Shown here piece after piece: positions 1,752 to 26,321 of a DNA stretch of 39,064 nucleotides. This DNA is from Kiritimatiellia bacterium (lineage in GTDB: Bacteria > Verrucomicrobiota > Kiritimatiellia > SLAD01): contig SKXR01000038.1 in the NCBI GenBank assembly GCA_007128275.1, forward strand, positions 1 through 39,064. Reading direction: 5' to 3'. The stretch's first letter is position 1. Each line of letters begins with the position of its first letter. The position numbers and the translations under genes were made by a program. The notes under the pieces were generated by a model. The model saw nothing but the letters and a program-made list of their open reading frames with translations. It made no database searches and had not been told where the DNA came from.

Positions 1752-3239
1752 TCAGATGATCTGGATGATCACCTCATCCTCGGGCTCCTCTTCGACGGGC
1801 GCCTCCTCCACGACGGCGAAAGTCGGCAGAATACGATAATACACTTGCAGCGTCAGCGCCGCCATGGCGGTGCTGAAGGCCGGTCCAAAACGCGTTTCCA
1901 CGCCGAATGGGATGTTCGATCCTTCGCGGGCGGGCGAAGTCCAGCTCCCGTCTTGGTTCTGATTGCGCACGAAGGCGGGTGCAAAGCGGTTGTTCCAGTC
2001 TTCCCATACCGAGCGACCCTGCTGGAACTTCACCTGAGTCACGTAATACCACCGGCTCATGGCCCATTGCGAGGGACGGTCCCAATTCACCTCCGCCGCC
2101 CGCAACACATCCATTCCGCGCCGGGCCTCCGACCGATTCCCCATGCCGTACAATTGAAATGTCAACACCGCCGCCGCCGTCAGACCATGATCCGGGCGAC
2201 GGGCGGACTGAACGCCTTCGACGCCCCGGTAGAAGAATTCACCGTCATCGGCTTGCCGGTTGAGGAGCATTTCCAGGGCTTCTTGCACGACCCTGTTCAA
2301 GTCGGGATTCGGCGCGCCGGCGAGTTCCGCCGCCTTGAGGGCCTGCAATTGCCATACGGAAACGGAGGTGTTGATCGGCTCGTTTGAAATGTTGTCATAG
2401 CCATAGCCCCACATGGCCCTGGCGTTCCGCCCCTTCAGAATGACCTCGACCCCCCGTTCCATGGGATCCCGCAACTGAGGAATCCGCGTCAGCGCATAGG
2501 CTTCCGCGATGGCATACGTTGCAATGGCGTGGCAATAGGCCCCTTCGGGCTTGATCGAGGGGTCCAGAAACTCGCCCCGGTCATTCTGGTTATCGACCAA
2601 GTACCGGATGGCGCGATGCACGGTCCGTCCATACTCTTTGGAAGCCGGCGTTTCACCATGAGCCAGAAACGCCAGCAAGCCCAAACCGGTTACCCCCGTG
2701 CGATGATTGCGATCACGCGGACCCGTCTGCGTTCGCCATGAACCATCTTCTTCTTGGTTTTCCTTCAACCAACGCAAGGCTCGTATCACCGCCGCCTCGG
2801 TGGCCTCCCCCCAACGCCCGCCATAGCGATTCAAGAGAGCCGAGCGGCCGGCCTCGTTCCTGCCGGCAAACAGGCCCTGCATCGTGAGCGGGCTGTCCAC
2901 CTGCATGACATCCAACGCCGCAAAATCAATCTCGGGTTGGTCTTGCGCAAAATCCTGCGGATCGGGCGGAACATCCACATCCACGTCCATATCCGGCATG
3001 TCAAAATCCAGATCAAACTCCAAGGGCTCGAATTCCGGCTCGATTTCATCGAAGAGATCGTCCAGATCCACTTCCTGGATGTCCATGATCATGGCTTCAA
3101 TTTCGGGCGTGCTCTCCCGGGTATCGAACACGATGAAATGCACCGCGGCGTAGAGAATGAATATATGAAGGAGCACCGACCCGGTGGGCCCGATCAAGTG
3201 TTCCATCACCTTCTTCTTCAAAAATTCTTTTCTAGTCAC
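1752..3239 (-). CDS. TonB-like membrane-anchored protein with a C-terminal squalene-cyclase/prenyltransferase-type alpha/alpha-toroid repeat domain (paralogue B, GTG start)
   Basis: 495-aa ORF. N-terminus: KKK, then a TM helix GSVLLHIFILYAAVHFIVF with S21-x3-H25. Then an acidic/Pro linker (EVDLDDLFDEIEPEFEPLEFDLDFDMPDMDVDVDVPPDP). Then repeated DGSW/DGEF motifs (QEEDGSW, QNDRGEF, QADDGEFF, QNQDGSWTSP) typical of prenyltransferase/SHC repeats. Last gene of the exbB-exbD-exbD operon. The start codon is GTG (3237-3239). Confidence 0.8.
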   Translation of the reverse strand: MTRKEFLKKKVMEHLIGPTGSVLLHIFILYAAVHFIVFDTRESTPEIEAMIMDIQEVDLDDLFDEIEPEFEPLEFDLDFDMPDMDVDVDVPPDPQDFAQDQPEIDFAALDVMQVDSPLTMQGLFAGRNEAGRSALLNRYGGRWGEATEAAVIRALRWLKENQEEDGSWRTQTGPRDRNHRTGVTGLGLLAFLAHGETPASKEYGRTVHRAIRYLVDNQNDRGEFLDPSIKPEGAYCHAIATYAIAEAYALTRIPQLRDPMERGVEVILKGRNARAMWGYGYDNISNEPINTSVSVWQLQALKAAELAGAPNPDLNRVVQEALEMLLNRQADDGEFFYRGVEGVQSARRPDHGLTAAAVLTFQLYGMGNRSEARRGMDVLRAAEVNWDRPSQWAMSRWYYVTQVKFQQGRSVWEDWNNRFAPAFVRNQNQDGSWTSPAREGSNIPFGVETRFGPAFSTAMAALTLQVYYRILPTFAVVEEAPVEEEPEDEVIIQII

Positions 3240-3264: not shown

Positions 3265-3392
3265 GTTCAGACGTACCACGTACATTCTCCCTCATGTGAC
3301 TTTCGCGCATAAATCCAGGATTTCAACTGTTCTCGTGCCGAGATCGGCGGATGGGGCATGACGGCAAACCGTTGTTCCGGTGATACAGGGAC
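3265..3392 (-). pseudogene. Relic of the 3' end of exbD, left by the tandem duplication (frameshifted and prematurely terminated)
   Basis: 3296-3345 aligns with 5028-5075 of the intact exbD (actttcgcgcataaatccaggatttcaac-tgttctcgtgccg versus actttcgcacataaatccaagatctcaatcaggttctcgtgccg). It encodes ..SRHEN, then a 2-nt deletion, then ..VEILDLCAKV followed by an early stop. The intact protein reads SRHENLIEILDLCAKVGLKNLSVVSMN. Boundaries are approximate. Confidence 0.65.
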
Positions 3393-3523: not shown

Positions 3524-4969
3524 TCAGATGATCTGGATGATCACCTCGTCTTCGTCGTCTTCTTCCTCGGCGGGTTCTTCGACTACGGCGAAGGTGGGAA
3601 GAATCCGGTAGTAGACTTGTAGCGAAAGGGCGGCGAGCGTGGTGGCATACACCGGACCGTAATTGACTTCGCGGTGCGCCGTGCCTCGGGGCAATTGACC
3701 ACTGGGCGAGGTCCAGCTCCCATCGGAATTCTGGTTCCGCACAAAGGCCGGCGCAAACGAATTATTCCAGGTATCCCACGTTCCACCGCCGGTCTGAAAT
3801 TTTGCTTGCGTGGCATAATACCACGTATACATCGCGCCGGCCGGGGCGTCATTCCAATTGACGCGCATATCACGAATCGCCGCCACGCCGTTGCGCACCT
3901 CGGTTGCACGCGGATTCCCGGCCAGTTGGAAGAGCAGACAGGACAGCGCCGTCATACTGTCATTCCGGGATTGCATGGAGGAATAGCCGAAGTGGTGGGT
4001 TTCCGGATTGTAGACCGTTAGGATGTCCTCCAAGGACTTATTCATGGCCTGTTGCAGGCCTCGCGCTCCGCTCCCGGCCAGCTGGGCGGCTTTCATGCCT
4101 TGAATATTGAATCCGGAAATGGATGTGTCGCGGCGCGAACCCTGGGCATAGTCATAGTCCCATCCGCCGCCCGGTTGCTGACCGTCAATGATGACCTGGA
4201 TGCTCTTATCCATGACATCCCGCAAATTCGGAATCCGGGTCATGGCGTACGCTTCGGCAATAGCATACGCGGCGATTGCTTGGGCATAGACCGGCGCATT
4301 ACCCGATCCCACGCCCTTGAAACGCCCGTCGTCTTCCATGTCGTTCACGAGAAAGCGGATGGCGCGGCGCACCGTGTTTCCGTAGCGTTCCGAGGAGCCT
4401 GTTTCCCCGTGCGCCAAATAGGTCAACAACCCCAAGCCCGTCATCGCGGCGGGGGCACGCGAGCCATGATCCCACGAGCCGTCGTCATTTTGGTTGATGC
4501 GCAACCATTCCAGCGCGCGGCGTACCGCGGCTTCCGTCTCTGCGCTGCCGCCGAAGCGCCTCAACATGGCGGCACGGCCGCCCTCACTGCGCCCTGAAAA
4601 CAAGCCCTGCATGGTGAGCGGACTGTCCACCTGCATGACATCCAGTGCCGCAAAATCCACATCGGGTTGGTCTTGCGCAAAATCCTGAGGATCGGGCGGA
4701 ACATCCACATCCACGTCCATATCCGGCATCTCGAAATCCAGATCAAACTCCAACGGCTCGAATTCCGGCTCCAAGTCATCCAGAATATCATCCAGATCCA
4801 CTTCCTGCATGTCCATGATCATGGCTTCAATTTCGGGCGTGCTCTCCCGGGTATCGAACACGATGAAATGCACGGCGGCGTAAAGAATGAATATATGAAG
4901 AAGCACCGACCCGGTGGGCCCGATCAAGTGTTCCATCACCTTCTTCTTCAAAAATTCTTTTCTAGTCAT
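3524..4969 (-). CDS. TonB-like membrane-anchored protein with a C-terminal squalene-cyclase/prenyltransferase-type alpha/alpha-toroid repeat domain (paralogue A)
   Basis: 481-aa ORF. The first 53 aa are identical to paralogue B, including the S-x3-H helix. It has the same acidic linker. The toroid repeats are diverged (NQNDDGSW, MEDDGRF, QQPGGGWDYDY, NQNSDGSWTSP). The C-terminal tail is the same (DEVIIQII). G-rich RBS (GGGGAGGGGGG) upstream of the ATG at 4969. Confidence 0.85.
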   Translation of the reverse strand: MTRKEFLKKKVMEHLIGPTGSVLLHIFILYAAVHFIVFDTRESTPEIEAMIMDMQEVDLDDILDDLEPEFEPLEFDLDFEMPDMDVDVDVPPDPQDFAQDQPDVDFAALDVMQVDSPLTMQGLFSGRSEGGRAAMLRRFGGSAETEAAVRRALEWLRINQNDDGSWDHGSRAPAAMTGLGLLTYLAHGETGSSERYGNTVRRAIRFLVNDMEDDGRFKGVGSGNAPVYAQAIAAYAIAEAYAMTRIPNLRDVMDKSIQVIIDGQQPGGGWDYDYAQGSRRDTSISGFNIQGMKAAQLAGSGARGLQQAMNKSLEDILTVYNPETHHFGYSSMQSRNDSMTALSCLLFQLAGNPRATEVRNGVAAIRDMRVNWNDAPAGAMYTWYYATQAKFQTGGGTWDTWNNSFAPAFVRNQNSDGSWTSPSGQLPRGTAHREVNYGPVYATTLAALSLQVYYRILPTFAVVEEPAEEEDDEDEVIIQII

Positions 4970-4991: not shown

Positions 4992-5408
4992 TCAGTTCAT
5001 ACTTACGACGGAAAGGTTCTTTAATCCTACTTTCGCACATAAATCCAAGATCTCAATCAGGTTCTCGTGCCGGGAATGAGCCGTAGCCATGATCAAGACC
5101 GTTTGATTCGGGTCGAGCGCGGCCAAGCGCCCCAGCGTGCGCTCAATGGCGGGCAAGCGCATCTGGCGGTCATTGACGGTATAGCCGTCCTCATAAATGA
5201 CCACCTGCAGGACGTTGGGCGTTTCCATCTGCTCTTTCGGCTCGGCGTCCGGCGCCGGGCGGAATACGTCCAGATGGGCCATCACATCCTGAATCTCAAA
5301 GGTTAGAATGAAGTAGATGAGCAGCTGGAAGACGATGTCGATCATGGGCGTCATCGACAGTTCGGCTTCGATCATCCCCTGTCTTCGTCTTTTGCGCTTG
5401 TGCGCCAT
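4992..5408 (-). CDS. exbD: Biopolymer transport protein ExbD/TolR family (second copy)
   Basis: 138 aa. A basic N-terminus is followed by MTPMIDIVFQLLIYFILTF, the hallmark ExbD/TolR TM segment with its conserved Asp. Confidence 0.9.
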   Translation of the reverse strand: MAHKRKRRRQGMIEAELSMTPMIDIVFQLLIYFILTFEIQDVMAHLDVFRPAPDAEPKEQMETPNVLQVVIYEDGYTVNDRQMRLPAIERTLGRLAALDPNQTVLIMATAHSRHENLIEILDLCAKVGLKNLSVVSMN

Positions 5409-5441: not shown

Positions 5442-5870
5442 CTAGTTGGCTTCCTTGATGGCCGCAAAGCTCACCCGGTACAAGCCGGCGCGCGTACAAA
5501 TATCCATCGCGCGCTGGATGTTCGTGTGCCGCACATCCATATCGCCCCGGATCACCACCGGCGTCGACTGCCCGTATTCGGCCACCGTCCGGCGCATAAT
5601 GGCAAACATTTGCTCCGGCGAAACGGGCACGCGACCAATGGAAAGGTGCCCGCGATCGTTGACGTCGATCGTCACCGTTCGCGGATCCCTGGTCTCCACC
5701 GCGGGACCGTGCGGCGACATCGCAAGCCGAATCCGTTCGTCCAACGCGTCGCGTTCCATTTCCACCGTAAGCACGAAGAAGATGATCATCTGGAATACGA
5801 TATCGATCATCGGCGTCATGTTGATGCCGCCGCCTTCGGCCACCCGTGATCTTTGTCTATTCTTGGCCAT
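5442..5870 (-). CDS. exbD: Biopolymer transport protein ExbD/TolR family (first copy)
   Basis: 142 aa containing INMTPMIDIVFQMIIFFVLTV, directly downstream of exbB. Confidence 0.9.
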   Translation of the reverse strand: MAKNRQRSRVAEGGGINMTPMIDIVFQMIIFFVLTVEMERDALDERIRLAMSPHGPAVETRDPRTVTIDVNDRGHLSIGRVPVSPEQMFAIMRRTVAEYGQSTPVVIRGDMDVRHTNIQRAMDICTRAGLYRVSFAAIKEAN

Positions 5871-5917: not shown

Positions 5918-6730
5918 CTATTCATCCACCACTTCCACATTGCGGAACACCTTGATCAGATCCATCGTGGTGCCTTCCATGCCGAGGATGATCTTGGTGG
6001 CGGTATTGCGGAAATAGTAGAAGAACGCCACGGCGGGCACGGCGACAGCCAGTCCGGCGGCGGTCGTGAAGAGCGCCTGCGAAATGTTCAACGCCAAGGC
6101 GGCCTGCTTGGCGGCGCCTTCGGCCGCCGTACCCAAGGTGGCAAAGGCGAAGATCATGCCTTGCACCGTACCCAGCAGCCCGAGCATCGGCGCCAGGTTG
6201 CCGACGACGTTGAGGTAATTGACGCGCTGCAGTAACTGCTCGCCTTCCAAGTCGGCGGCGACGGCAACGGCGTCCTGAATCGCTTCAAACCCTTCTTCGA
6301 CGTTGGTGAAGCCGGCGGACAGGATATTGGACAGCGGCACGGGATTCTCTTCGCAATGCTTGAGGGCTTTCATGACGTCGCCCTGTTCCATGGCCGTGCG
6401 CACTTCGGAAACCAGGCTCTCCGGCGCAATCTTGGACGCCCGGATCGTAACAAACGAATCCACAATCAACGCGATGCCTGCGACGGACGCCGCAAAGATG
6501 GTCAACCAGAGGATGATGCCCAGAAGGCCGGCGCCCGTGACGATTTGGAAGAATCCGGGACCGGGAACCGCGACCTCATCCACATCGGCGGCCAGCTCCA
6601 TGCCTGGAGCGACCTGTTGTCCGGCGGGCGCCGGCGCAGGAGCCTCCTCCTGTGCAACCGTTGTCTGAACGGTCGCTACTCCGATGAAGAGGGCCATCAA
6701 CAACATCAAGCCAAATATCCGATTCCGCAT
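5918..6730 (-). CDS. exbB: MotA/TolQ/ExbB proton-channel family protein with a signal peptide and an N-terminal periplasmic extension
   Basis: 270 aa. The C-terminal half, NLAPMLGLLGTVQGMIFAF...ALFTTAAGLAVAVPAVAFFYYF, is the MotA_ExbB channel core. AAGGAG RBS upstream of the ATG at 6730. Confidence 0.9.
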   Translation of the reverse strand: MRNRIFGLMLLMALFIGVATVQTTVAQEEAPAPAPAGQQVAPGMELAADVDEVAVPGPGFFQIVTGAGLLGIILWLTIFAASVAGIALIVDSFVTIRASKIAPESLVSEVRTAMEQGDVMKALKHCEENPVPLSNILSAGFTNVEEGFEAIQDAVAVAADLEGEQLLQRVNYLNVVGNLAPMLGLLGTVQGMIFAFATLGTAAEGAAKQAALALNISQALFTTAAGLAVAVPAVAFFYYFRNTATKIILGMEGTTMDLIKVFRNVEVVDE

Positions 6731-6826: not shown

Positions 6827-7630
6827 TTACAATTTACCGCGCGCCTGTTGCGCATAGGGACTGTTGCCGTACTGCTCCACCACTTTCCGGTACATGTCGC
6901 GCGCCCGTTGGTCCCGCATTTCCTCCAAGGTCTGGGCCGCCTTGAACGTCGCTTCCGGCTGCACGGCGGTTACCGCTTTGAAGAGCACCACCGTGCGCAA
7001 ATAATCCAGCAACCCCGCTTCCGCCATCCCGCGTTGGCGTTTCAGGTCGCCTCGCATGATCTGCGCGCGAGCCGCTTCGGATCGTTCTCCATCGGAGATA
7101 ATGTCGTTGAGATAGTTCTCAAGGCGATCGAGTTGCTCGGCGCCCAAAAGGGCCTCGAAGTACCCCCACCGCATGTTCGGATCCTCACGGCGGTGCGGGG
7201 CGTTCTGGAAAAGCCGCTCGAACGAGCTCAGCGCGGCGGCGTGGTCCCCTTTGGCGTTATTGGCCTGACCGATCATCGCCAGTGCTTCCAGGTCCCAGCC
7301 CAGATGCCGGTATCGTGTGAGCACGCCTTCCAAGGTTGAGATCACCTGATCATAGCGCCGCGCCTGCAGATGTTGACGGGCCTGGTCAAGCTCGGCCGGC
7401 CGGTCCGCCCATGCTTCCCGGTATTGGCCGCGCGCGAAGGTGAGATCACCGCGTTCCGTCGTGAGGATCACATCGCCGTTGGCGCGGGCGCGGATGGCGG
7501 TTCCATCAATACGCCGTCCGTCGGTCAAAATCACATGCGCCGCATCGGACAGGACCGGCCACGCCATCAGGACCGTCATGATCAGGCATAGCCATTGTAT
7601 TCTGCTGCTTGTTGTGTTTCTTGTTTTCAT
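6827..7630 (-). CDS. Secreted TPR-like helical-repeat protein
   Basis: I place the start at the internal ATG 7628-7630 (MKTRNTTSSRIQWLCLIMTVLMAWPVLSDA, a signal peptide). The track ORF extended to 7741 would overlap the upstream gene. The helical-repeat content looks TPR-like. Confidence 0.7.
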   Translation of the reverse strand: MKTRNTTSSRIQWLCLIMTVLMAWPVLSDAAHVILTDGRRIDGTAIRARANGDVILTTERGDLTFARGQYREAWADRPAELDQARQHLQARRYDQVISTLEGVLTRYRHLGWDLEALAMIGQANNAKGDHAAALSSFERLFQNAPHRREDPNMRWGYFEALLGAEQLDRLENYLNDIISDGERSEAARAQIMRGDLKRQRGMAEAGLLDYLRTVVLFKAVTAVQPEATFKAAQTLEEMRDQRARDMYRKVVEQYGNSPYAQQARGKL

Positions 7631-7664
7631 GGGCGCACCTTCTTCGTTGCTTATCCGTATGGTT

Positions 7665-10454
7665 TTATTGAATCGCTCTGCGACGCGCGTCGGCCCGAAT
7701 GCGCCGCACATCCTCCACGTGATCGCTCCCCGGGAAATCACTCAAGAATTGGATACTCACATCTTCCACGTCTTGATACAGTTCCAGTTCCATCATCAAG
7801 TCTAGGCTTTCCACAAGACTGCGTTCGATGATCGGTCGTAACCGCCTGTTTTCGGGATCCTGCAACAACGCAATGCGCTGGAACGTGGCGAGCGCCTCCT
7901 GCCGGTTGCCCTGCAGCCGCTGGATCTCGCCCAACTTGAACTGCGCCCGCTGATTGACAATGTTGTCCTGCGAAAGCCGGAGAATATCGTTGAGCGCGGT
8001 GAGGGCCGGGTTGTACTGCTCCAATTCCCTGTGCGAATCGGCCAACAGAAAGCGCGCCTCGTAAAAGAACGACGTGTTCGGGAAGCGTTCCAACAGGTCG
8101 TTCAAGGCCGAAACGGCTTCCGCATGATTCCCTTGATGGTTATAGGCATAGCCCAGGCCATGCAGCGCGAGTTCCAGCATCTGGCGCTGTTCCGTGGTTT
8201 CGAGCACGCGGCGATACGCCGGGATGACATCTTCGTAGAGCCCATTGTCGAGCATCAGTTGCCCAATGCGCGTGAATTCCTCCGGGGAATAGGCGTCCGG
8301 CGTGGCGATCATGCGACGGAACGCATCGCGCGCGATTTCCGTTTCGCCGATCTCGAACGCGGAGCTAACCAGCGCGAACAGCGCACTGCGTCCTTCTTCG
8401 GAATCCGGATACTCCCGCGCCAGTTGTTCAAACGTGGCGGCGGCCTCCGAGGATTGGCCCAGCGCCAATTGGATCGCGCCCTTGTCCCGCATGGCGGGCG
8501 GGGCCAGAGACGATTCCGGATGGCGGCGCAGGAAATGGTCATACGCCGCAATGCCCCGTTGACGATAGGTCTCGACCTGCTCCTCCGGCTCGCGGATACG
8601 TCCGTAACAATACCCCACGAAGAAGAGCGATCGTTCCAACAACCCCGCGTTCCGTTCCGCATCTTCGGGACGCGCATTGTCCGGAGGATTATCCACGCTC
8701 AACCACCGCACGATCTGCCCGTACGACTGGATGGCCTCGGCGTACTTCTGCTGTTTCTGCTGGGTATCGGCCAGCAGGAATTGGCCGCGAATCCGGTCAT
8801 GACCGGGACGGGACGCTTCTACGTACCGGCGGAACAACGACTCCGCCTCTTCGAAATCCTTGCTCTGATAGGCGCTATGCGCCATGGCAAAGAGGGCACG
8901 CAGGAAAAAACGGTCGCGCGGATAATTTTCGACAATCCGCTGATAATAGTGCGCAGCCGCCTCCCGCTCGCCTGCGGCTTCGCTACGACGCGCCATATCG
9001 AAGAGCAACGCCGGCGCACGTTCATGATTCGGGAAGCCATCGAAATAGTCACCGAAGATGGCATTGTACATCTCCTCGTTTTCCTGCTCGACGTACATGC
9101 GTCCGGCGATCAACAGGGCGTTGGCGGCCACGTTGTTGTTGGGGAAGCGCTCGGAAAGGTACGAGGACATCATCAAGACATGAAGTTCATCTTCGAGGTG
9201 GGCATAACTCAGCAGCAGGTTGGCGAGGGCGCGGATGGATGGATCGCCTTCGGGGAAAGCGTTGAGAATGCGCAGATACTCTTCAATCGCCTGCTTGTAG
9301 TCACGCTGACGGAACAGATCGTCCGCATGCGTGTACTGCGCCTGGGCGGCGCCCGTCATGTGTTCGCCAAAGTCGATATTCACGCTGCGGCCGTATTCAT
9401 TCTCCAGCATATTGACCAATTCCCGGCCACGCATGCCGGCTTCGGCGCCCCATTCGCTGGTGCCGTACTTTCCGAATACGTTATAATATTCGGTTAAGGC
9501 CCGTTGAATCGCTCCCAGGATTTCCCGTTCCGGAGCGTTTTGCCCGCGAAGTTCGCGGACCTGCTTTTCATACAGTTCGCCCAGCAAGAAACGCGCGCCG
9601 GCCACGGGACTCATCGCCGAGGGGAAGTTTTGTTTCCGCAGCAAATCGTCGATCTTATTCAGGTCGGACATATACCGCTGCAACAATTCGCGGGCGCCGG
9701 CATCGTTGCCCCGTACCATTTCGACATGGGCCATGACACTAATGGATTGGCCGAACCAGAGGTCATAGCCCCCCCACTGAATTTCTTCGCACAACTCAAA
9801 GGATTGTTTCAGGTAGTTTTCGCGTTCCTCGCCGCTCTTTTCGCGGCCCAACTGCAGGAAAAGTCGTGCCAGATCCATTTGGAGTCGACGCTCGGCATTC
9901 GGATCGTCCAAGCCGGCGTTGAGGAGTCTGCGATACGCTTGAGCGGCGCCTTCCCGGTCGCGCATCCGTTCGAGCATTTGCCCATATTGATAGGCGGCGT
10001 CCTGATAAAAGCGGAGCAGATCGGGATCGGTGGGGGTGCGATCCTTATACCGCTCAAAAAAGGCGTCATAGATCGCTCGCGCCTGATCCGTCTCACCGAT
10101 GCGGAAATAGCCCTGGGCGATGCGTAATTGGAGGGCGTGACGCTGGGGGTGATCGTCCGGCATGGTCTTGGCCAATTCCTCGGCCTCGGCGAATCGACGC
10201 TGGGCGATAAGAATTTCGCCTTGAATCCGGGTGGCGCGATCTCGCTGGTCGGGATGAAGGCGCAACACGGCGTCCACCACGCGGTTGGCGAGATCAGAAA
10301 ATCCCAACTCGATCAGGCCGGAGGCAAACTCGAATTCCCGATCCACATCCATGGACGCTTTCGCCGGAGTCGCGACGAAAGGAGACAGGATCAACATGGT
10401 CACGGCCACGGCAACGCGGATGGAATCTTTCACATTCAGCACCTTTCCCGTCAT
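7665..10454 (-). CDS. Large secreted tetratricopeptide-repeat protein (929 aa), first gene of the ExbBD cluster
   Basis: Signal peptide (VAVAVTMLILSPFVATPAKA). After it come many 34-aa-type repeats with the A..Y/F......A...F/Y periodicity throughout. Confidence 0.8.
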   Translation of the reverse strand: MTGKVLNVKDSIRVAVAVTMLILSPFVATPAKASMDVDREFEFASGLIELGFSDLANRVVDAVLRLHPDQRDRATRIQGEILIAQRRFAEAEELAKTMPDDHPQRHALQLRIAQGYFRIGETDQARAIYDAFFERYKDRTPTDPDLLRFYQDAAYQYGQMLERMRDREGAAQAYRRLLNAGLDDPNAERRLQMDLARLFLQLGREKSGEERENYLKQSFELCEEIQWGGYDLWFGQSISVMAHVEMVRGNDAGARELLQRYMSDLNKIDDLLRKQNFPSAMSPVAGARFLLGELYEKQVRELRGQNAPEREILGAIQRALTEYYNVFGKYGTSEWGAEAGMRGRELVNMLENEYGRSVNIDFGEHMTGAAQAQYTHADDLFRQRDYKQAIEEYLRILNAFPEGDPSIRALANLLLSYAHLEDELHVLMMSSYLSERFPNNNVAANALLIAGRMYVEQENEEMYNAIFGDYFDGFPNHERAPALLFDMARRSEAAGEREAAAHYYQRIVENYPRDRFFLRALFAMAHSAYQSKDFEEAESLFRRYVEASRPGHDRIRGQFLLADTQQKQQKYAEAIQSYGQIVRWLSVDNPPDNARPEDAERNAGLLERSLFFVGYCYGRIREPEEQVETYRQRGIAAYDHFLRRHPESSLAPPAMRDKGAIQLALGQSSEAAATFEQLAREYPDSEEGRSALFALVSSAFEIGETEIARDAFRRMIATPDAYSPEEFTRIGQLMLDNGLYEDVIPAYRRVLETTEQRQMLELALHGLGYAYNHQGNHAEAVSALNDLLERFPNTSFFYEARFLLADSHRELEQYNPALTALNDILRLSQDNIVNQRAQFKLGEIQRLQGNRQEALATFQRIALLQDPENRRLRPIIERSLVESLDLMMELELYQDVEDVSIQFLSDFPGSDHVEDVRRIRADARRRAIQ

Positions 10455-10559
10455 ATCATCCCACTAAAAGGCGGTCACTGGTTCAATCGTGAAACAGTCC
10501 GCCAACATGCTCCATAGCGTGAAGGAGCGTAATTGATAACCCCAGGATCGTCAAGTGCC

Positions 10560-10591
10560 GACGCGCACGACGCGGGGACGCGCACGACGCG
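10560..10591. repeat. Direct repeat gacgcgcacgacgcg x2, separated by gg
   Basis: Copies at 10560-10574 and 10577-10591, in the spacer between the coiled-coil gene and the TPR operon. Confidence 0.9.
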
Positions 10592-10621
10592 CGACGAACC
10601 CGAGAGCCACCACGCCTTCTC

Positions 10622-10915
10622 TTAGTGCTTCCTGAATTTCGCCCCGGCTTCCTTGAAACCCAGCTTGAGCGATTCCCATGAGGCGTTCAGCCCGGCCTTG
10701 AGCGAAGCCCACGCCTCGTCACCGGCAGCGCCGAATTCCTTCAGTTGGTCGCGGGCTTCCGCCATCTGCGTTTCCAACGCATCAATCTGTTCTTGCATCC
10801 CGTGTTGAGCGTCCGCGCTCGCCCCTTTGGCTTGCGCTTTCAACTTATCGAGTTCCGCGTGCCATTCATCCAGCTGCGCCTGCAGTTTCTGTTGATATAA
10901 TTTTCTGTCACTCAT
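10622..10915 (-). CDS. Small coiled-coil protein (97 aa), function unknown
   Basis: The ATG at 10913-10915 overlaps the TGA of the upstream FAD oxidoreductase (ATGA). Sequence MSDRKLYQQKLQAQLDEWHAELDKLKAQAKG...: heptad-rich, with no TM segment. Confidence 0.65.
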   Translation of the reverse strand: MSDRKLYQQKLQAQLDEWHAELDKLKAQAKGASADAQHGMQEQIDALETQMAEARDQLKEFGAAGDEAWASLKAGLNASWESLKLGFKEAGAKFRKH

Positions 10916-12336
10916 GTGCTTTCTCCTTCTGTCGTGTCGGATTGATACGCGGCAACACATTTCTCATAGAGATCAGGGAAGGCGCCTTCCGGATCGTAGC
11001 GCGATTTGAGTCGCCCATAGGCATCACGATTGTAGTGCGACCAGAATTCCGTCTCCGTGAAGAACGAAGTGGAGTAGAGCGACTTCTTGCCGCCCAGCCG
11101 GGCTACTTCTTTTTCCACAAGCCGGTTGTAATGGCCCGGCGGATGACCACTCCGTACGCCGCCCCAGAAACCAAAGTTGATATACAATACATCCGGATCG
11201 GTTTGATACAAGGGATAGACATTCTCCGTGCGGAACGCCTGAGCGGGACAGATCCATACCGGCCGTATACCAATTCGCTCGTTCAGAAATTCCAAAAACC
11301 GGGGCGCGTGCTCCACCGGGATCTCCACATCCTGAATCACCCACTCTACGGATGGCATGAGTCCAATCCGTTGCAGCAGACGCCCGCGTTCGTTCCAGTC
11401 GCGCAGCTTCCAGTACGTCGTGGAATTCAGCAAGCCCATCGAACCCGCCAGAAAACGCAATACGGGGTTCTCCATTCCAAAAGCGCGGGAGCACCAAAAC
11501 CAATCGGTATCCCAGCGCCAAATGTAATCGCGGGTCGTGAGGACATCCCCGTCTTTCCGCCGGATCGAATGATAATACACCTTCATGAAGGTATACCGGC
11601 TTACCGCTTCCGCGTGATCGATGAAATGCCCCTCGGTCCGATACAGCTCATGGTTCCCAAAGGCCGTACCGTCCATGAACGCGGCCCCGTCCGCGCGGTT
11701 ACGATGCTTCCGACAGGCCTCCGCCAAATCATGGAAATAGGAGTCGGGATCGGCGGCCTTCGCATGCGTAAGCCGCACATAGGAACGCACCGGCACGAGC
11801 CGTATCCATAGCCGAAGCGCATAGCCCAGCGTCCCGTACGAATTGGGGAACCCATAGAAAAGATCGCGCTGCTCATTATCCGGACGCGCCAACACCGTAC
11901 GCCCCTCCCCCGTCAACACCTCGACCGCTTGCAGAGTCTCGTGCACAAACCCGTACCGGAACGACGAAGACTCGATGCCCCCGCCGGTGACGGCGCCGCC
12001 AACCGTGATGGATTTCAGTTGGGGCACCACGGCCGGCATCAAGCCGTGCGGCAACGTCGCATCCACCAGCGTCTCGTACGGGGTCATGCCTTCCACTTCG
12101 GCCACCCGGTTCTCCGGGTCCACCGCGATGACATGGTTGAAATCAGTGACGTCGAGACGTTCGGCGCGGGTGGGCGCCGGCCGTACCCGAAACAGATTCG
12201 ATGTGCGCTTGCCGAGGCGCGGCGTGCGTCCGCGTTGCCGGGCCTCCGCGAACTGCTTGATCAGCCGGTCCCGGCGCATCGCAAAAGACCGGCGCCGGGA
12301 TTCGGATGCAATCCCGCTGTTATCGTACCGGCGCAT
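10912..12336 (-). CDS. PCMH-type FAD-binding oxidoreductase, BfaA/DHCR24-like
   Basis: Contains KRTSNLFRVR...VIAVDPENRVAEVEGMTPYETLVDATLPHGLMPAVVPQLKSITVGGAVTGGGIESSSFRYG (FAD_binding_4-like) and the C-terminal YGRLKSRYDPEGAFPDLYEKC. I place the start at ATG 12334-12336, overlapping the last 17 nt of the methyltransferase gene. The ATG at 12279 is an alternative. The track ORF start at 12492 lies inside the upstream gene. Confidence 0.75.
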   Translation of the reverse strand: MRRYDNSGIASESRRRSFAMRRDRLIKQFAEARQRGRTPRLGKRTSNLFRVRPAPTRAERLDVTDFNHVIAVDPENRVAEVEGMTPYETLVDATLPHGLMPAVVPQLKSITVGGAVTGGGIESSSFRYGFVHETLQAVEVLTGEGRTVLARPDNEQRDLFYGFPNSYGTLGYALRLWIRLVPVRSYVRLTHAKAADPDSYFHDLAEACRKHRNRADGAAFMDGTAFGNHELYRTEGHFIDHAEAVSRYTFMKVYYHSIRRKDGDVLTTRDYIWRWDTDWFWCSRAFGMENPVLRFLAGSMGLLNSTTYWKLRDWNERGRLLQRIGLMPSVEWVIQDVEIPVEHAPRFLEFLNERIGIRPVWICPAQAFRTENVYPLYQTDPDVLYINFGFWGGVRSGHPPGHYNRLVEKEVARLGGKKSLYSTSFFTETEFWSHYNRDAYGRLKSRYDPEGAFPDLYEKCVAAYQSDTTEGEST

Positions 12337-15258: not shown

Positions 15259-15287
15259 TTGACCGCGTCCCTGCCCGCTCCTATTGT
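15259..15287 (+). promoter_or_regulatory. Putative sigma70-type promoter abutting the bamD-like ATG (possible leaderless mRNA)
   Basis: TTGACC (15259-15264), a 17-nt spacer, TATTGT (15282-15287), then the ATG at 15296. No Shine-Dalgarno sequence in between. Confidence 0.3.
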
Positions 15288-15295
15288 ACTCGGCC

Positions 15296-16288
15296 ATGAC
15301 TATTCGGCCATTTATTCGAAGCGCGCTCTTCTGTGGCGGCCTGGCCCTGTTCTTCTTGCTCCCGGTCGCGACCGAGGCTTCGCGTCCATTTCACGAGGAA
15401 GAACGCGAGCCCCGTCGGTTCCGTCTCTTACGCCCCAAAATGGATGAACCCGCCGCCCAATTGCAGTATGCCGACGCGTTGCAGGAACGCGGGCGTATGC
15501 GCCGCGCCCAACGCCAGTACCGCGCGCTGGTCCGTTATTGGCCCAACACGCAGGAAGCCGCTCAAGCCCAATACGCGTATGCCCGCCTCCTCGAAGAGCG
15601 CGGTAAACTTTCCCGCGCGTTCGATCAGTACGAAACCTTGATGGAAAACTACACGGGCATGTTTCCGCACGCGCACGTGCTGGAACGATTCTTCGAGATG
15701 GGCGAGACCATCATGGATCGGCGACGCGCCCGCTTCCTGATCTTCCCCGGATTTCATGCGCCGGAACGGGCCATCCCGTACTTCGAGGCCGTGGTCGATT
15801 ACGGTCCGCAATGGGCACGAGCGCCCGAGGCGCAACTGAACATTGCCCGGATCAAGGAACAGATCGACAGACTCGAAGAGGCCGTCTTCGCGTATGACCG
15901 CGTTGAATTCCGTTATCCGCGCAGTCCGCTCGTGGAGGAAGCGTCTTTTGGGAAAGCCCGCACGCTCTATGAGCTTTCCCGCGAAGCCCCCAACCACGTG
16001 GACGGCGCGGAAACGGCGCTGCACGCGTTGGGCTCGTTTGTGCGTAATTATCCGGATTCCGAACATGTCGAGGAAGCGCGCGAGTATATGCGAACCTTGT
16101 ACCGGGAACTCGCCCGACTTGCCTATCAGAAGGCGCGCTATTACGATCGCATCGCGCGTCGCCCGCAGGCCGCTGTAACCACGTATGAGCGTTTTCTGGA
16201 GGAATTTCCGGATACCGAATGGTCCGACACGGTCAGAAAGCGCTTGGAAACATTGCGGGAAAAGTTGGGAGATCAAGATGAGGGTTAA
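15296..16288 (+). CDS. BamD-like (YfiO-family) TPR protein, putative outer-membrane assembly factor
   Basis: The ATG at 15296 gives MTIRPFIRSALFCGGLALFFLLPVATEA, a signal sequence. The track start at 15284 is a TTG. TPR pairs with the Y..A......G....A periodicity throughout (QYADALQERGRMRRAQRQYRALVRYWPNTQEAAQAQYAYARLLEERGK). The family call is by resemblance only. Confidence 0.5.
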   Translation: MTIRPFIRSALFCGGLALFFLLPVATEASRPFHEEEREPRRFRLLRPKMDEPAAQLQYADALQERGRMRRAQRQYRALVRYWPNTQEAAQAQYAYARLLEERGKLSRAFDQYETLMENYTGMFPHAHVLERFFEMGETIMDRRRARFLIFPGFHAPERAIPYFEAVVDYGPQWARAPEAQLNIARIKEQIDRLEEAVFAYDRVEFRYPRSPLVEEASFGKARTLYELSREAPNHVDGAETALHALGSFVRNYPDSEHVEEAREYMRTLYRELARLAYQKARYYDRIARRPQAAVTTYERFLEEFPDTEWSDTVRKRLETLREKLGDQDEG

Positions 16289-23333: not shown

Positions 23334-24662
23334 CTAGAGGGTGGGTTGATGGAAGCGGAGTCGCACCTCGATTTCCCGGGTCTCGCCTCCCGGGATACGC
23401 GGCGTCATCCGGATCCAGCCGCCGTCCAGCTCGTACTCCTCCGAAGCGCGTTGCACGTCCCATGTCAGGGTCAGGGGGGGGCGCTCGTGAATCTCCAAGG
23501 CGATGGCGCGCGGGCGCTGGTTCTCGACGGTCAGTTGGAACGTTTCCTCGTAATGACCGAACTGCAATTCGGTCCGCCGCACGCTCCGCCGCATACCCAG
23601 CACATCTTCCGCCTTCCCGAGATGAACCCGGATCTCCCGGTTCATCGGCGTATGCGGCAGAAAGCCGGGCAAACGCATCGTTCTACGAGTGACTCCGTGA
23701 AATACCTCGACGGGGCCCGGGGGCAAGATCCACCCCAATCGGTTGGCAGCGGTGTTCTTGAACACCAAATACTGATGCAGGGGGCGAAAGGCGCCCGTCA
23801 TACTCAACGCGACCTCCGTCGAATCCATCACGTAGAGCCGGGACGCGGGGATGCGGTGGGACGCAATGAAATGAACCTCGGTTTCCGCATGGGACGGGAT
23901 GTTTACGCGACGCGGCATGCGATAGACGAACTCAGGCGGCGGATCCACATCCTGGGCTTTCCACAAATCCGCCAAGGGCGTATCGGCCAACATCAAGAAC
24001 CCGGCCCGGCGTTCCGGTTCGCGCGGCAACCGGGGATCCGCTCCCACGAGCCGAACCAGCGTATTGGTGAACGAGCGACCGGTCGGATTGTCTATCCGCA
24101 CGAACCCGGTCAGGTCGAGTGCCACGCTCTCGTCCAATCCGTCCGGTTCACCGCGAATGAAGACCTGGTAGTAAGAGGTCCACTGCATGCCCTCGACGCG
24201 ATACACGACTTCCAACGAGCGCGCGCCGCCCACCGGAATACGGACCCGGCACCGGACCGGCCCATCCTTACGCGAGAAAGACGCTTGCGCCGACGGGGTC
24301 GCCGCGCCATGGATCACGCCATCGGGCGTGATGATCAACGACTCGGCATCCGACGGTGCAACCGTCGACCCGGCGCCGCGATCCACACGTTGCCAGTCCA
24401 GTACGTCCACAGGAAGGCGGCGCGTGCGGATCGTCAACGACGATAGGTCCGCCTGCTCCGGGATGCCCTCCAAGAGGAGATCCTGCTCGCCGGGCGCCAA
24501 ATCAAAGCGGCGCATTTCGCGCACCACGGCCCACCCCTCGCCTATGGTGAGCGTCGTTTCAATCGGTTGTTGCGCCGATACGGAGAGGCAAATGCTCGAC
24601 CAGAACATGGCCGAGCCGATGAGCAACAACGCCATACCCGTGAATGGACGCAGCCCCGTCAT
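23334..24662 (-). CDS. Secreted DUF4139-type (MuiA-like) protein, paralogue 2
   Basis: Start at ATG 24660-24662 (MTGLRPFTGMALLLIGSAMFWSSICLSVSAQQ). The track start at 24674 is a TTG. N-terminal block TIGEGWAVVREMRRFDLAPGEQDLLLEGIPEQADLSSLTIRT. C-terminal block TFQLTVENQRPRAIALEIHERPP...REIEVRLRF. Confidence 0.7.
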   Translation of the reverse strand: MTGLRPFTGMALLLIGSAMFWSSICLSVSAQQPIETTLTIGEGWAVVREMRRFDLAPGEQDLLLEGIPEQADLSSLTIRTRRLPVDVLDWQRVDRGAGSTVAPSDAESLIITPDGVIHGAATPSAQASFSRKDGPVRCRVRIPVGGARSLEVVYRVEGMQWTSYYQVFIRGEPDGLDESVALDLTGFVRIDNPTGRSFTNTLVRLVGADPRLPREPERRAGFLMLADTPLADLWKAQDVDPPPEFVYRMPRRVNIPSHAETEVHFIASHRIPASRLYVMDSTEVALSMTGAFRPLHQYLVFKNTAANRLGWILPPGPVEVFHGVTRRTMRLPGFLPHTPMNREIRVHLGKAEDVLGMRRSVRRTELQFGHYEETFQLTVENQRPRAIALEIHERPPLTLTWDVQRASEEYELDGGWIRMTPRIPGGETREIEVRLRFHQPTL

Positions 24663-24809
24663 CCCGCCCTCCAAACACGCTCGCGGCTCAAGCCGGCAAT
24701 CTGTTCCTTGCGGCGCCCTGCCGGGTAGCGGGCCGCCGGACGGTTGGATGAATCAATCGCACTCATAAGTACACACTCGCCCCCGACCCCGCTCCCGAAG
24801 GCGTCCGGA

Positions 24810-26321
24810 TCACCAACTGTACCGCACCGTGTAATGAATGGTCCGCCGTCCATCCGGCCGCAGCGTAGGCCGAAACTCGATGGTTTGGTCGCCCGTCTGC
24901 TCATACTCCGCGTCCGCGCGCACAATCTCGAATTCGTGCCAGCGATACAAGTGTTCGACGACGCGGATTTCGACGGTGTCGGTTGTGTTGTTTTCCAAGC
25001 GGATCTGGAATGTCTCTTCGTACACGCGCAGCGGGGTGATCTCCGTATAGCCCGTGCGTTCCCGTTCGCCGCGCAACCCCCGCGCGGCGCCCAACAACAC
25101 GTGACCGGGCTCGCCGACCGACGTCGGCAACAGGGTGTCTTCGCCAAGAAACTCGACCGCGCCATCGGCTTTGCGCTGATACAGCCGGAACAGGCCGGGC
25201 GGCAGATTGAGGCCCAACCCTTCCGCGGGATCATTCTCAAAACGCAAATGCGTATCCACCACCGAATGCGATTCCGTCCCATAGTTCCAGTCGTTGCGAC
25301 GATGCCGCTGAAAGCGGTCGAATCGGACCCCGTCATACACGTAGAAGCGGGACACGGGCAACGCATCCACCCGGGCGTATTGGACGAACTTGTGATCGCC
25401 GTGTTTGAGGGTCACCGGTTGTTCCAAGCGATAGGTCTGGACAGGCATCAGCGTGGCCGCCGTTTCTTCAAAGGTGGGTTCCTCCGCGCCGTACATATAC
25501 CGCAAGGCGGGCGCGGTAGTCCGTTGGGCCCGGGGCGAAGCCACCGCCGAACGCCGGCGATCGGCCAGCAGACCGCGTTCCGTCGCAATCAGCTGAATCC
25601 CGGCCTCCTGGAAATCACCGCCGGACTGGTTATCCAACCCGACGCGCGCGGCGAAATACGCGGACTCTCCGTCTTCGTCGAGGACCACCTCATAGGCGGC
25701 TTGCCAGCGGATCTCGTCTACGCGATAGGTCAACCGTATATTCTGCGGGCCTTCCTGATCCACTTGCGCGCGCCATTGCAAGACCGGTTCAATATGGGCC
25801 AGCCGACGGACGTCAGGCAGAACGACCTGTTGTACGTTGTCGGCACGAACAAACACCCGCGCCTCCCGGTCGTCGGATTCGATCATGAGCAACCCCGCTT
25901 GTCCGGGGGCTTCCGCCCAACGAGGCGCATGCAAAAGCCGACCCGCATGGCGTTCGCCCTGCGCAACGACTTCAATTGGGCGCCCGAGATAGCGGGTCAA
26001 AAGTTTGTCGGGCGAAGCGGAGTCGTAGAAGAACTGCTGTTCAAGAACTTGCAGGCCGGGCAGACCAACCAGCGGGATAAAGGAAACCGTCGAGGGATCG
26101 AGCAACGGAGGCAACTGACGGAAGCGGATCACATTCTCACCGCTCGCCGGTGTGAGTCGCCGCATTTCGCTGACCAACCCGAATCCCTGATCATACAAGA
26201 CAAGCGCCGTGGATTGCGGCGGTGACGCCTCCGATTCAATCGGGTCGCCGTGGACGGCATCGACGGCCGCCGAAGCCCCCAACAACCATGCCAGTAGAAG
26301 ACCTTGTATGTTCCTGTTCAT
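24810..26321 (-). CDS. Secreted DUF4139-type (MuiA-like) protein, paralogue 1
   Basis: 503 aa with a signal peptide, MNRNIQGLLLAWLLGASAA. N-terminal block LVLYDQGFGLVSEMRRLTPASGENVIRFRQLPPLLDPSTVSF. C-terminal block TFQIRLENNTTDTVEIRVVEHL...RTIHYTVRYSW. Confidence 0.7.
   Translation of the reverse strand: MNRNIQGLLLAWLLGASAAVDAVHGDPIESEASPPQSTALVLYDQGFGLVSEMRRLTPASGENVIRFRQLPPLLDPSTVSFIPLVGLPGLQVLEQQFFYDSASPDKLLTRYLGRPIEVVAQGERHAGRLLHAPRWAEAPGQAGLLMIESDDREARVFVRADNVQQVVLPDVRRLAHIEPVLQWRAQVDQEGPQNIRLTYRVDEIRWQAAYEVVLDEDGESAYFAARVGLDNQSGGDFQEAGIQLIATERGLLADRRRSAVASPRAQRTTAPALRYMYGAEEPTFEETAATLMPVQTYRLEQPVTLKHGDHKFVQYARVDALPVSRFYVYDGVRFDRFQRHRRNDWNYGTESHSVVDTHLRFENDPAEGLGLNLPPGLFRLYQRKADGAVEFLGEDTLLPTSVGEPGHVLLGAARGLRGERERTGYTEITPLRVYEETFQIRLENNTTDTVEIRVVEHLYRWHEFEIVRADAEYEQTGDQTIEFRPTLRPDGRRTIHYTVRYSW

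Follow-up and report, generated by a model that had tools for sequence, protein, structure and literature searches.

Toroid-headed paralogues with a putative TonB/TolA-type motor-coupling module in a Kiritimatiellia ExbB-ExbD operon

Introduction

TonB and TolA were long the sole known adaptors carrying the energy of ExbBD- and TolQR-type motors across the periplasm, and a class whose head is of the von Willebrand factor A (vWA) type was added in 2025. To our knowledge, Kiritimatiellia are reported to be without recognisable TonB and TolA. Here we analysed a 39,064-nt stretch of DNA from a Kiritimatiellia bacterium (assembly GCA_007128275.1, contig SKXR01000038.1, positions 1 to 39,064 of the forward strand; hereafter the window), in which two paralogous proteins, A and B, are encoded downstream of the genes of an ExbB-ExbD-type motor. 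On the evidence of their sequences, residues 1-130 of both proteins probably constitute a motor-coupling module of the TonB/TolA type, fused to a head of a different kind.

The elements by which such adaptors engage their motors have been defined in several systems. In E. coli, TonB S16/H20 touch ExbB S34/W38, which links to P190 (PMC12215075). Just past the anchor, Loll et al. described the TonB D-box, a proline-flanked strand of the form Phi-z-Phi-z-Phi-Phi-z that adds itself as a strand to the periplasmic dimer of ExbD (PMC10907165). The same strand was termed the motor box by Williams-Jones et al., who found it in TonBs, most TolAs and the vWA transducers (PMC12204202). The latter are monomeric force transducers of Tichowtungia aerotolerans and other Planctomycetota-Verrucomicrobiota-Chlamydiota (PVC) bacteria that combine an SHLS helix, a motor box and a vWA head, and in Kiritimatiellota they are encoded downstream of a cluster of tetratricopeptide repeat (TPR) protein, tolQ, tolR and tolR genes (Williams-Jones et al. 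2025, Mol Biol Evol, PMC12204202).

These vWA-headed transducers are the closest precedent for A and B, with which they share the phylum, a single S-x3-H transmembrane (TM) helix, a disordered juxtamembrane strand and a globular head that is not of the TonB kind. They differ from A and B in the head, which is here a toroid and all-helical in the model, and in the tether: the first 150 residues of the Tichowtungia vWA protein are K/R-rich, whereas the tether of the toroid family is strongly acidic with about 4% K/R. Likeness to TonB extends to the Ser-x3-His face, a strand about 25 residues past the His, a disordered Pro-containing domain II, neighbouring exbB and exbD genes and the Ser/Thr/Thr/Pro set of ExbB; in contrast, the TonB_C domain and the Pro-Lys half of TonB are absent from A and B, and ExbB Trp38 is not kept. 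Likeness to TolA is seen in the anchor, where TolA SAVLHVILFAAL resembles SVLLHIFILYAA of A and B, and in the strand, where IDAVMVD resembles IEAMIMD. The motor also scores best against TolQ and the operon encodes CpoB/YbgF-like TPR proteins, as in Tol-Pal, but A and B have neither domain III nor the long helical domain II of TolA, and the motor has two different TolR-like subunits rather than one. No TonB-dependent receptor was found in the window, and neither tolB nor pal was found in the operon or among the window open reading frames (ORFs) scanned.

A toroid-headed transducer type is not described in the searchable literature. The 2025 study of the vWA class makes no mention of prenyltransferase, terpene or toroid domains (PMC12204202), and full-text literature searches returned no paper that links squalene-oxidase-repeat or terpene-cyclase proteins with ExbD or TolQ.

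Results and Discussion

An S-x3-H anchor helix conserved across a large family

Paralogue A (3524-4969; 481 residues, ATG start) and paralogue B (1752-3239; 495 residues, GTG start) are both encoded on the minus strand, as are all features of the operon given below, and share one architecture of cytoplasmic stub, S-x3-H anchor helix, D-box-like strand, acidic tether, (alpha/alpha)6 toroid and acidic C-terminal tail. A sequence-only reading of this DNA had placed a TonB/TolA-like N-terminal module at 2850-3239 in B and 4580-4969 in A, which are exactly codons 1-130 of the two genes, and the common start that it reported, MTRKEFLKKKVMEHLIGPTGSVLLHIFILYAAVHFIVF, is indeed present in both. A and B show no differences in residues 1-53, and 119 of their first 130 residues are identical. 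The basic stub (residues 1-16 of A, 4922-4969) carries R3, K4, K8, K9 and K10 and is helical in the structural model described below. It leads into a G-P-x-G cap and a TM helix (residues 17-38; 4856-4921 in A, 3126-3191 in B) that bears Ser21 and His25 as that reading had claimed, with Ala32 at the position of the SHLS Leu and Ile36 at that of the SHLS Ser. There are five K/R in residues 1-20 and no charged residue in 21-38. The stub, the single TM helix and an acidic, Pro-containing spacer devoid of a basic half thus stand as first described, the spacer having 23 D/E, 0 K/R and 7 Pro in residues 53-105.

A and B belong to a family with 619 matches in a clustered protein collection and at least 576 relatives in species-representative genomes, almost all of them Kiritimatiellia, Verrucomicrobiota or Lentisphaerota metagenome-assembled genomes (MAGs); the closest relative, at 85% identity, comes from a Kiritimatiellae MAG. 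Across 91 family N-termini, 76 have Ser at position 21, with Ala in 7, Gly in 4 and Thr in 3, and 86 have His at position 25, where Asn is found in 3 and Tyr in 1; the motif takes the form SxxxH in 76, AxxxH in 7 and TxxxH in 3. The helix cap is more constant still (G17 in 91, P18 in 89, G20 in 87), and GP..S...H can be read even in members at 25-35% identity. Conservation of the Ser and His in orthologues, on which the earlier proposal hinged, is therefore borne out: the His is invariant in a 33-sequence alignment as well as present in 86 of the 91 N-termini, and the Ser in 76. Judged from these sequences, the S-x3-H motif and the acidity of the spacer are beyond chance and conserved across a large family.

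Where the Ser and His are lost, they are lost jointly. GxxxN (GPIVGIILN) replaces the motif in loci L040, L054 and L057 (match at 8001) and GxxxY (FGGVFFY) in L076 (6127); all four variants remain operon-linked, and no compensating change was seen in ExbB TM1 of these loci. As cited in PMC8928145, Swayne and Postle (2011) found Asn to be fully functional in place of His20 of E. coli TonB.

The same features bear on whether the helix is retained at all. A basic n-region followed by a hydrophobic stretch is what a Sec signal peptide would offer, and its cleavage would leave a soluble periplasmic toroid as the mature protein, but this reading is hardly credible: the apolar stretch of 18-24 residues holds invariant polar and Gly/Pro positions at a level of conservation not seen in signal peptides, and the sequence after it follows the consensus F-x-V-F-x-x-x-E with no conserved small-x-small site. 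Together with the G-P-x-G that precedes the helix and the strand that follows at a fixed distance, this indicates that the helix is in all likelihood a stable anchor. AlphaFold2 places it as an 18-residue helix spanning residues 18-35 of A.

A D-box-like strand at a fixed offset

Beyond the helix lies a second putative coupling element, absent from the sequence-only reading. This D-box-like or motor-box-like strand, recognised by the definition of PMC10907165, occupies residues 45-54 of both proteins (PEIEAMIMDM at 4808-4837 in A, PEIEAMIMDI at 3078-3107 in B) and begins 22 residues past His25, with IEAMIMD at offset +22. The corresponding strands are ISVTMVT at +25 in E. coli TonB and IDAVMVD at +28 in TolA. 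Its family logo reads [P]-E-[I/V]-E-V-x-[V/I/M]-[M/V/I]-[E/D]-[P]-[D/E]. Of 87 members, 75 have a relaxed D-box pattern 22-23 residues past the His and 46 a strict one, whereas shuffling yields 0.14 and 0.07 per sequence, respectively. Prolines flank the strand on both sides in 16 of the 75 pattern-bearing members, with logo peaks at -2 (33) and +7 (35).

A proposed motor partner that retains most contact residues

The motor is encoded by an ExbB/TolQ-like proton channel gene (5918-6730; 270 residues) followed by ExbD/TolR-like subunit 1 (5442-5870; 142 residues) and subunit 2 (4992-5408; 138 residues), with Pfam matches of 2.6e-24 to MotA_ExbB and 1e-20 to ExbD. TolQ (TIGR02796 and PDB TolQ chains) gives the best scores for the ExbB homologue. 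Residues of the TonB/TolA contact network seen in cryo-EM structures are kept: the equivalents of Ser34 (TolQ Ser28), Thr148, Thr181 and Pro190 (E. coli ExbB numbering) occur in all 61 ExbB sequences, among them the pore Thr ring and the TM3 Pro of 5:2 proton motors of the MotA/TolQ/ExbB-ExbD/TolR kind. The protein is of a long form, having a signal-peptide-like N-terminus and then, ahead of TM1, about 35 residues of periplasmic extension.

ExbD1 and ExbD2 share only about 28% identity, and each keeps the TM Asp (Asp25) in 66 of 66 sequences. The pair is kept in all operon-linked loci, and at the position of E. coli L132 in the D-box pocket ExbD1 has Phe and ExbD2 Val/Ile. These sequences point to a heterodimeric ExbD pair whose strand-binding cleft would be asymmetric because its two halves differ.

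Operon linkage and the weight of the coupling reading

About 60 of 79 loci have the gene order of the window, in which a large and then a small TPR protein are followed by ExbB, ExbD1, ExbD2 and one or two toroid genes. That the helix is the coupling element to the adjacent ExbBD, as the sequence-only reading proposed, is supported by the conservation of Ser and His, by this synteny, by the D-box-like strand and by the retained ExbB and ExbD residues, and we regard the assignment of residues 1-130 as a motor-coupling module as probable.

Several observations weigh against it. At the SHLS Leu position (His+7) the family has Leu in 59 of 91 N-termini and Ala in 27, the window proteins being among those with Ala, and at the last SHLS position (His+11) V, I, L, A or M are found and Ser in 0 of 91; in TonBs themselves, Celia et al. 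noted, the last two SHLS positions are less conserved (PMC12215075). ExbB Trp38 (TolQ Trp32), the residue that touches TonB His20 in E. coli, has no counterpart in its alignment column in any of the 61 sequences, although in 17 a Trp stands one position further on. When all PDB sequences were searched at E <=10 with a profile built from residues 1-67 of the family, the matches were to designed proteins and deaminases and included neither TonB nor TolA chains, which we attribute to a motif too short for the statistics of hidden Markov models (HMMs). When the family profile was aligned by hhalign with eight TonB/TolA N-termini, the S/H register was matched, but weakly (P = 0.0015, 17% probability; controls P = 0.06-0.23). 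Finally, in about 10 of the 79 loci a family member stands without a motor nearby, and four such motor-less copies are anti-sigma-like and linked to genes for extracytoplasmic function (ECF) sigma factors, where the anchor could serve another purpose.

The motor-less loci, the missing Trp contact and the weak profile similarity would all suit an ordinary signal-anchor, with a toroid protein acting alone in the periplasm, for example in glycan binding or processing, next to ExbBD through a shared envelope role, and with Ser and His serving self-association or folding. We consider this unlikely, since a polar face within the membrane, a strand at fixed offset and gene conversion confined to the module (see below) fit two known motor-contact elements in position and pattern, and at least six of the motor-less copies come from MAGs that hold an operon-linked copy on another contig. 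In the aligned Trp38 column itself, 55 of the 61 sequences have I, V, A or F and the remaining six G, M, T or S.

The four ECF-linked orphans (L053 7195-9392, L062 5532-7777, L069 7242-9377 and L079 1967-4167) have an added cytoplasmic domain of 85-100 residues, and each lies directly downstream of an ECF sigma factor gene (Sigma70_r2 and r4, E 1e-6 to 1e-11). This arrangement would favour a reading of the family as periplasmic sensors or anti-sigma factors, in which helix and strand would be signalling or regulated-proteolysis elements and the operon copies truncated sensors regulating, or regulated by, the ExbBD-TPR system. We think this quite improbable: the window proteins and most relatives have a stub of 15-20 residues with no anti-sigma domain, a match to zf-HC2 is not significant (E = 0.54), and the ECF-linked orphans retain [S/T/A]xxxH, the D-box-like strand and the acidic linker, so that they fit equally well as motor-coupled signalling proteins of a FecR/TonB-like kind.

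The coupling module, in turn, was found on toroid heads only. To look for other heads on the N-terminal module, the six-frame ORFs of the 79 loci and the window were all scanned by HMM, and only toroid proteins were returned. A phmmer search with the module against 1.84 billion representatives gave 92 matches, and of 14 with unusual length that were checked by Pfam and BLASTP, 13 were toroid proteins or fragments of them; the remaining one (P0148, 1019 residues) was rejected as an unrelated repetitive protein with 14 short matched stretches only. At the level of sequence, therefore, no sharing of the module with the vWA class is detectable.

Paralogue evolution

Divergence between A and B is distributed unevenly along the proteins: their coupling modules are 93% identical and their heads 52%. 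At the DNA level the identity of about 94% covers codons 1-125, and upstream only a decayed exbD 3' fragment is shared. This remnant (3300-3341), a decayed version of the final exbD codons (...EILDLCAKV), lies upstream of B and is a relic of the tandem duplication that created it. Compared with the orthologues in the nearest MAG (L001), the order is reversed, with modules 77% and heads 80-87% identical, and within L001 the modules of the two paralogues (7874-9253 and 9588-11081) are again 90% identical to each other. Because the modules are alike within a genome while the heads have diverged and the upstream sequence has decayed, we infer that the duplication is old and that the module has been homogenised by gene conversion. 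Gene conversion confined to the module is what would be expected if both heads must fit one motor.

An opposite evolutionary regime is seen in one clade (L021 5521, L048 9574, L033 7814, L029 3042, L046 9608 and L055 9553), where the second tandem paralogue carries AxxxH and has diverged. Several AxxxH copies have a Pro-rich stretch (PPPPL) in place of part of the acidic linker.

A polyanionic tether as a family trait

Between strand and head, residues 55-115 (4625-4807 in A, 2895-3077 in B) form a polyanionic, Pro-containing tether, which in the model of A has pLDDT (predicted local distance difference test) values below 50 and is disordered. Measured from the helix to the junction motif SPLxMxGLxxGR in the 79 measurable members, the linkers are 70-82 residues long and acidic in 79 of 79, with a net charge of -9 to -31 (median -20) and a median composition of 31% D/E, 4% K/R and 12% Pro. 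This is unlike domain II of E. coli TonB, which has 15 D/E, 15 K/R and 30 Pro in 117 residues and is thus charge-neutral and 26% Pro. The relatives come from rumen, digester, marine and soda-lake samples, and the linkers are conserved among them; therefore, acidity and length are family traits and not an artefact of a halophilic source. A role of the tether in binding cations, or in staying extended by charge repulsion, is speculation. The junction itself, SPLTMQGLFSGRSEGGR at residues 116-132 of A (4574-4624), lies ahead of the head and has invariant S116, L123, G126, R127 and R132.

A single (alpha/alpha)6 toroid head

AlphaFold2, run on A with a 33-sequence alignment, gave a model with a mean pLDDT of 77.7, in which residues 3-16 and 18-35 are helices, 37-121 are disordered (pLDDT <50), 129-455 form a confident all-helical domain and the tail 458-481 is disordered. 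The head proper, residues 133-455 (3605-4573), mostly exceeds a pLDDT of 85. Foldseek against the PDB returned single (alpha/alpha)6 toroids at probability 1.0, with target-normalised TM-scores of 0.57-0.67 and identities of 11-17%, among them AprG, the MmpH hydrolase, GH76 mannanases, sugar epimerases and single-domain terpene cyclases. In the model, about 325 residues make up the head, which is one (alpha/alpha)6 toroid and not a TonB, TolA or vWA domain; searches of A and B for TonB_C, TonB_2 and TolA domains (Pfam and NCBIfam) and for vWA (Pfam) gave no match. Class II terpene cyclases such as MstE, the GH76 mannanases, MmpH and AprG are alike in head fold, but their catalytic motifs were not identified in the A/B head, and in none of them does a tether lead to a motor-coupling anchor.

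The best database names for the family, "terpene cyclase/mutase family" and "prenyltransferase/squalene oxidase repeat", would make A and B membrane-anchored terpenoid cyclases. Pfam matches the head to SQHop_cyclase_C, weakly, at 29-33 bits, and the fold resembles that of single-domain terpene cyclases at TM-scores of about 0.6, yet this identity is very improbable. Scores against the NCBIfam cyclase models reach about one-tenth of the cut-offs (33-39 bits against 322-851; for TIGR01787 the cut-off is 322.7), there is one toroid rather than two, and glycan-active toroids (GH76, MmpH, AprG and the epimerases) match the fold equally well. The cyclase motifs DxDD and DCTAE and the thioester motif CGEQ, when looked for in the A/B head, were absent; DxDD occurs in 9 of 84 family heads. 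The head would also be periplasmic, on an acidic tether.

The C-terminal tail (residues 456-481 of A, 3527-3604, ending DEVIIQII-COOH; its counterpart in B at 1755-1832) is conserved in 88 family members, in which about 22 residues past YYRxLPT lead to a terminus of the form DD[VI]x[IV][EQ][IV][IL]-COOH. It is strand-like in character, acidic and then hydrophobic, and could be the peptide through which the protein docks on the co-encoded TPR proteins or on a beta-sheet partner.

A model for force transmission

Taken as a motor-coupling module, residues 1-130 would work as follows. Through its Ser/His face, the anchor helix would dock against TM1 at the outer side of the ExbB pentamer, as in TonB-ExbB and TolA-TolQ. 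The strand would be captured by the periplasmic domains of ExbD1 and ExbD2 through beta-augmentation, in the manner of the TonB D-box; the E. coli D-box binds with a Kd of about 19 uM, and the peptide TPEIEAMIMDMQ is a candidate binder of the ExbD1 and ExbD2 domains. Proton flow would then turn ExbD and pull the tether, so that force or displacement could reach whatever the toroid head holds, candidate partners being a glycan, the co-encoded TPR proteins or a partner in the outer envelope. The two paralogues may place two different heads on one coupling module, much as several TonBs can share one ExbBD.

Extending this model, the operon, which is conserved and housekeeping in character, might be a third type of trans-envelope machine driven by the proton-motive force. 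Its heterodimeric ExbD stator would pull, by way of the polyanionic tether, on a toroid that binds a glycan or a partner; each motor would have two interchangeable heads, and relatives fused to an anti-sigma domain would turn the pull into ECF-sigma signalling. We offer this larger scheme tentatively, as one more likely to be wrong in some part than right as a whole. If the coupling reading is true, the module would be a portable cassette able to power quite different periplasmic heads, and the operon may be an envelope-energising system of a phylum without recognisable TonB/TolA. The family would also supply natural tests of what an anchor needs, in its Gly/Asn and Gly/Tyr variants, its ExbB without the Trp contact and its heterodimeric ExbD, and its ECF-linked relatives hint at motor-coupled signalling.

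Other features of the window

Upstream of the motor genes, the operon encodes a small CpoB/YbgF-like TPR protein (6827-7630) and a large TPR protein (7665-10454; 929 residues) that has multiple YbgF-like repeats and whose N-terminus is signal-peptide-like. Taken as its longest ORF (6827-7741), the small TPR gene would run 77 nt into the end of the large TPR gene, and a signal-peptide-like sequence follows an internal Met at 7630; translation therefore probably starts at that Met. A scan of the operon for promoters and terminators gave counts no higher than chance. The surroundings in the window are housekeeping genes, namely gatC, serS, tilS, ftsH, folP, cdaA (as cdaA-ybbR) and proC. The window also holds a gene for a BamD/YfiO-like TPR lipoprotein at 15284-16288, and two adjoining DUF4139 proteins (23334-24674 and 24810-26321) are encoded beside a family-2 glycosyltransferase.

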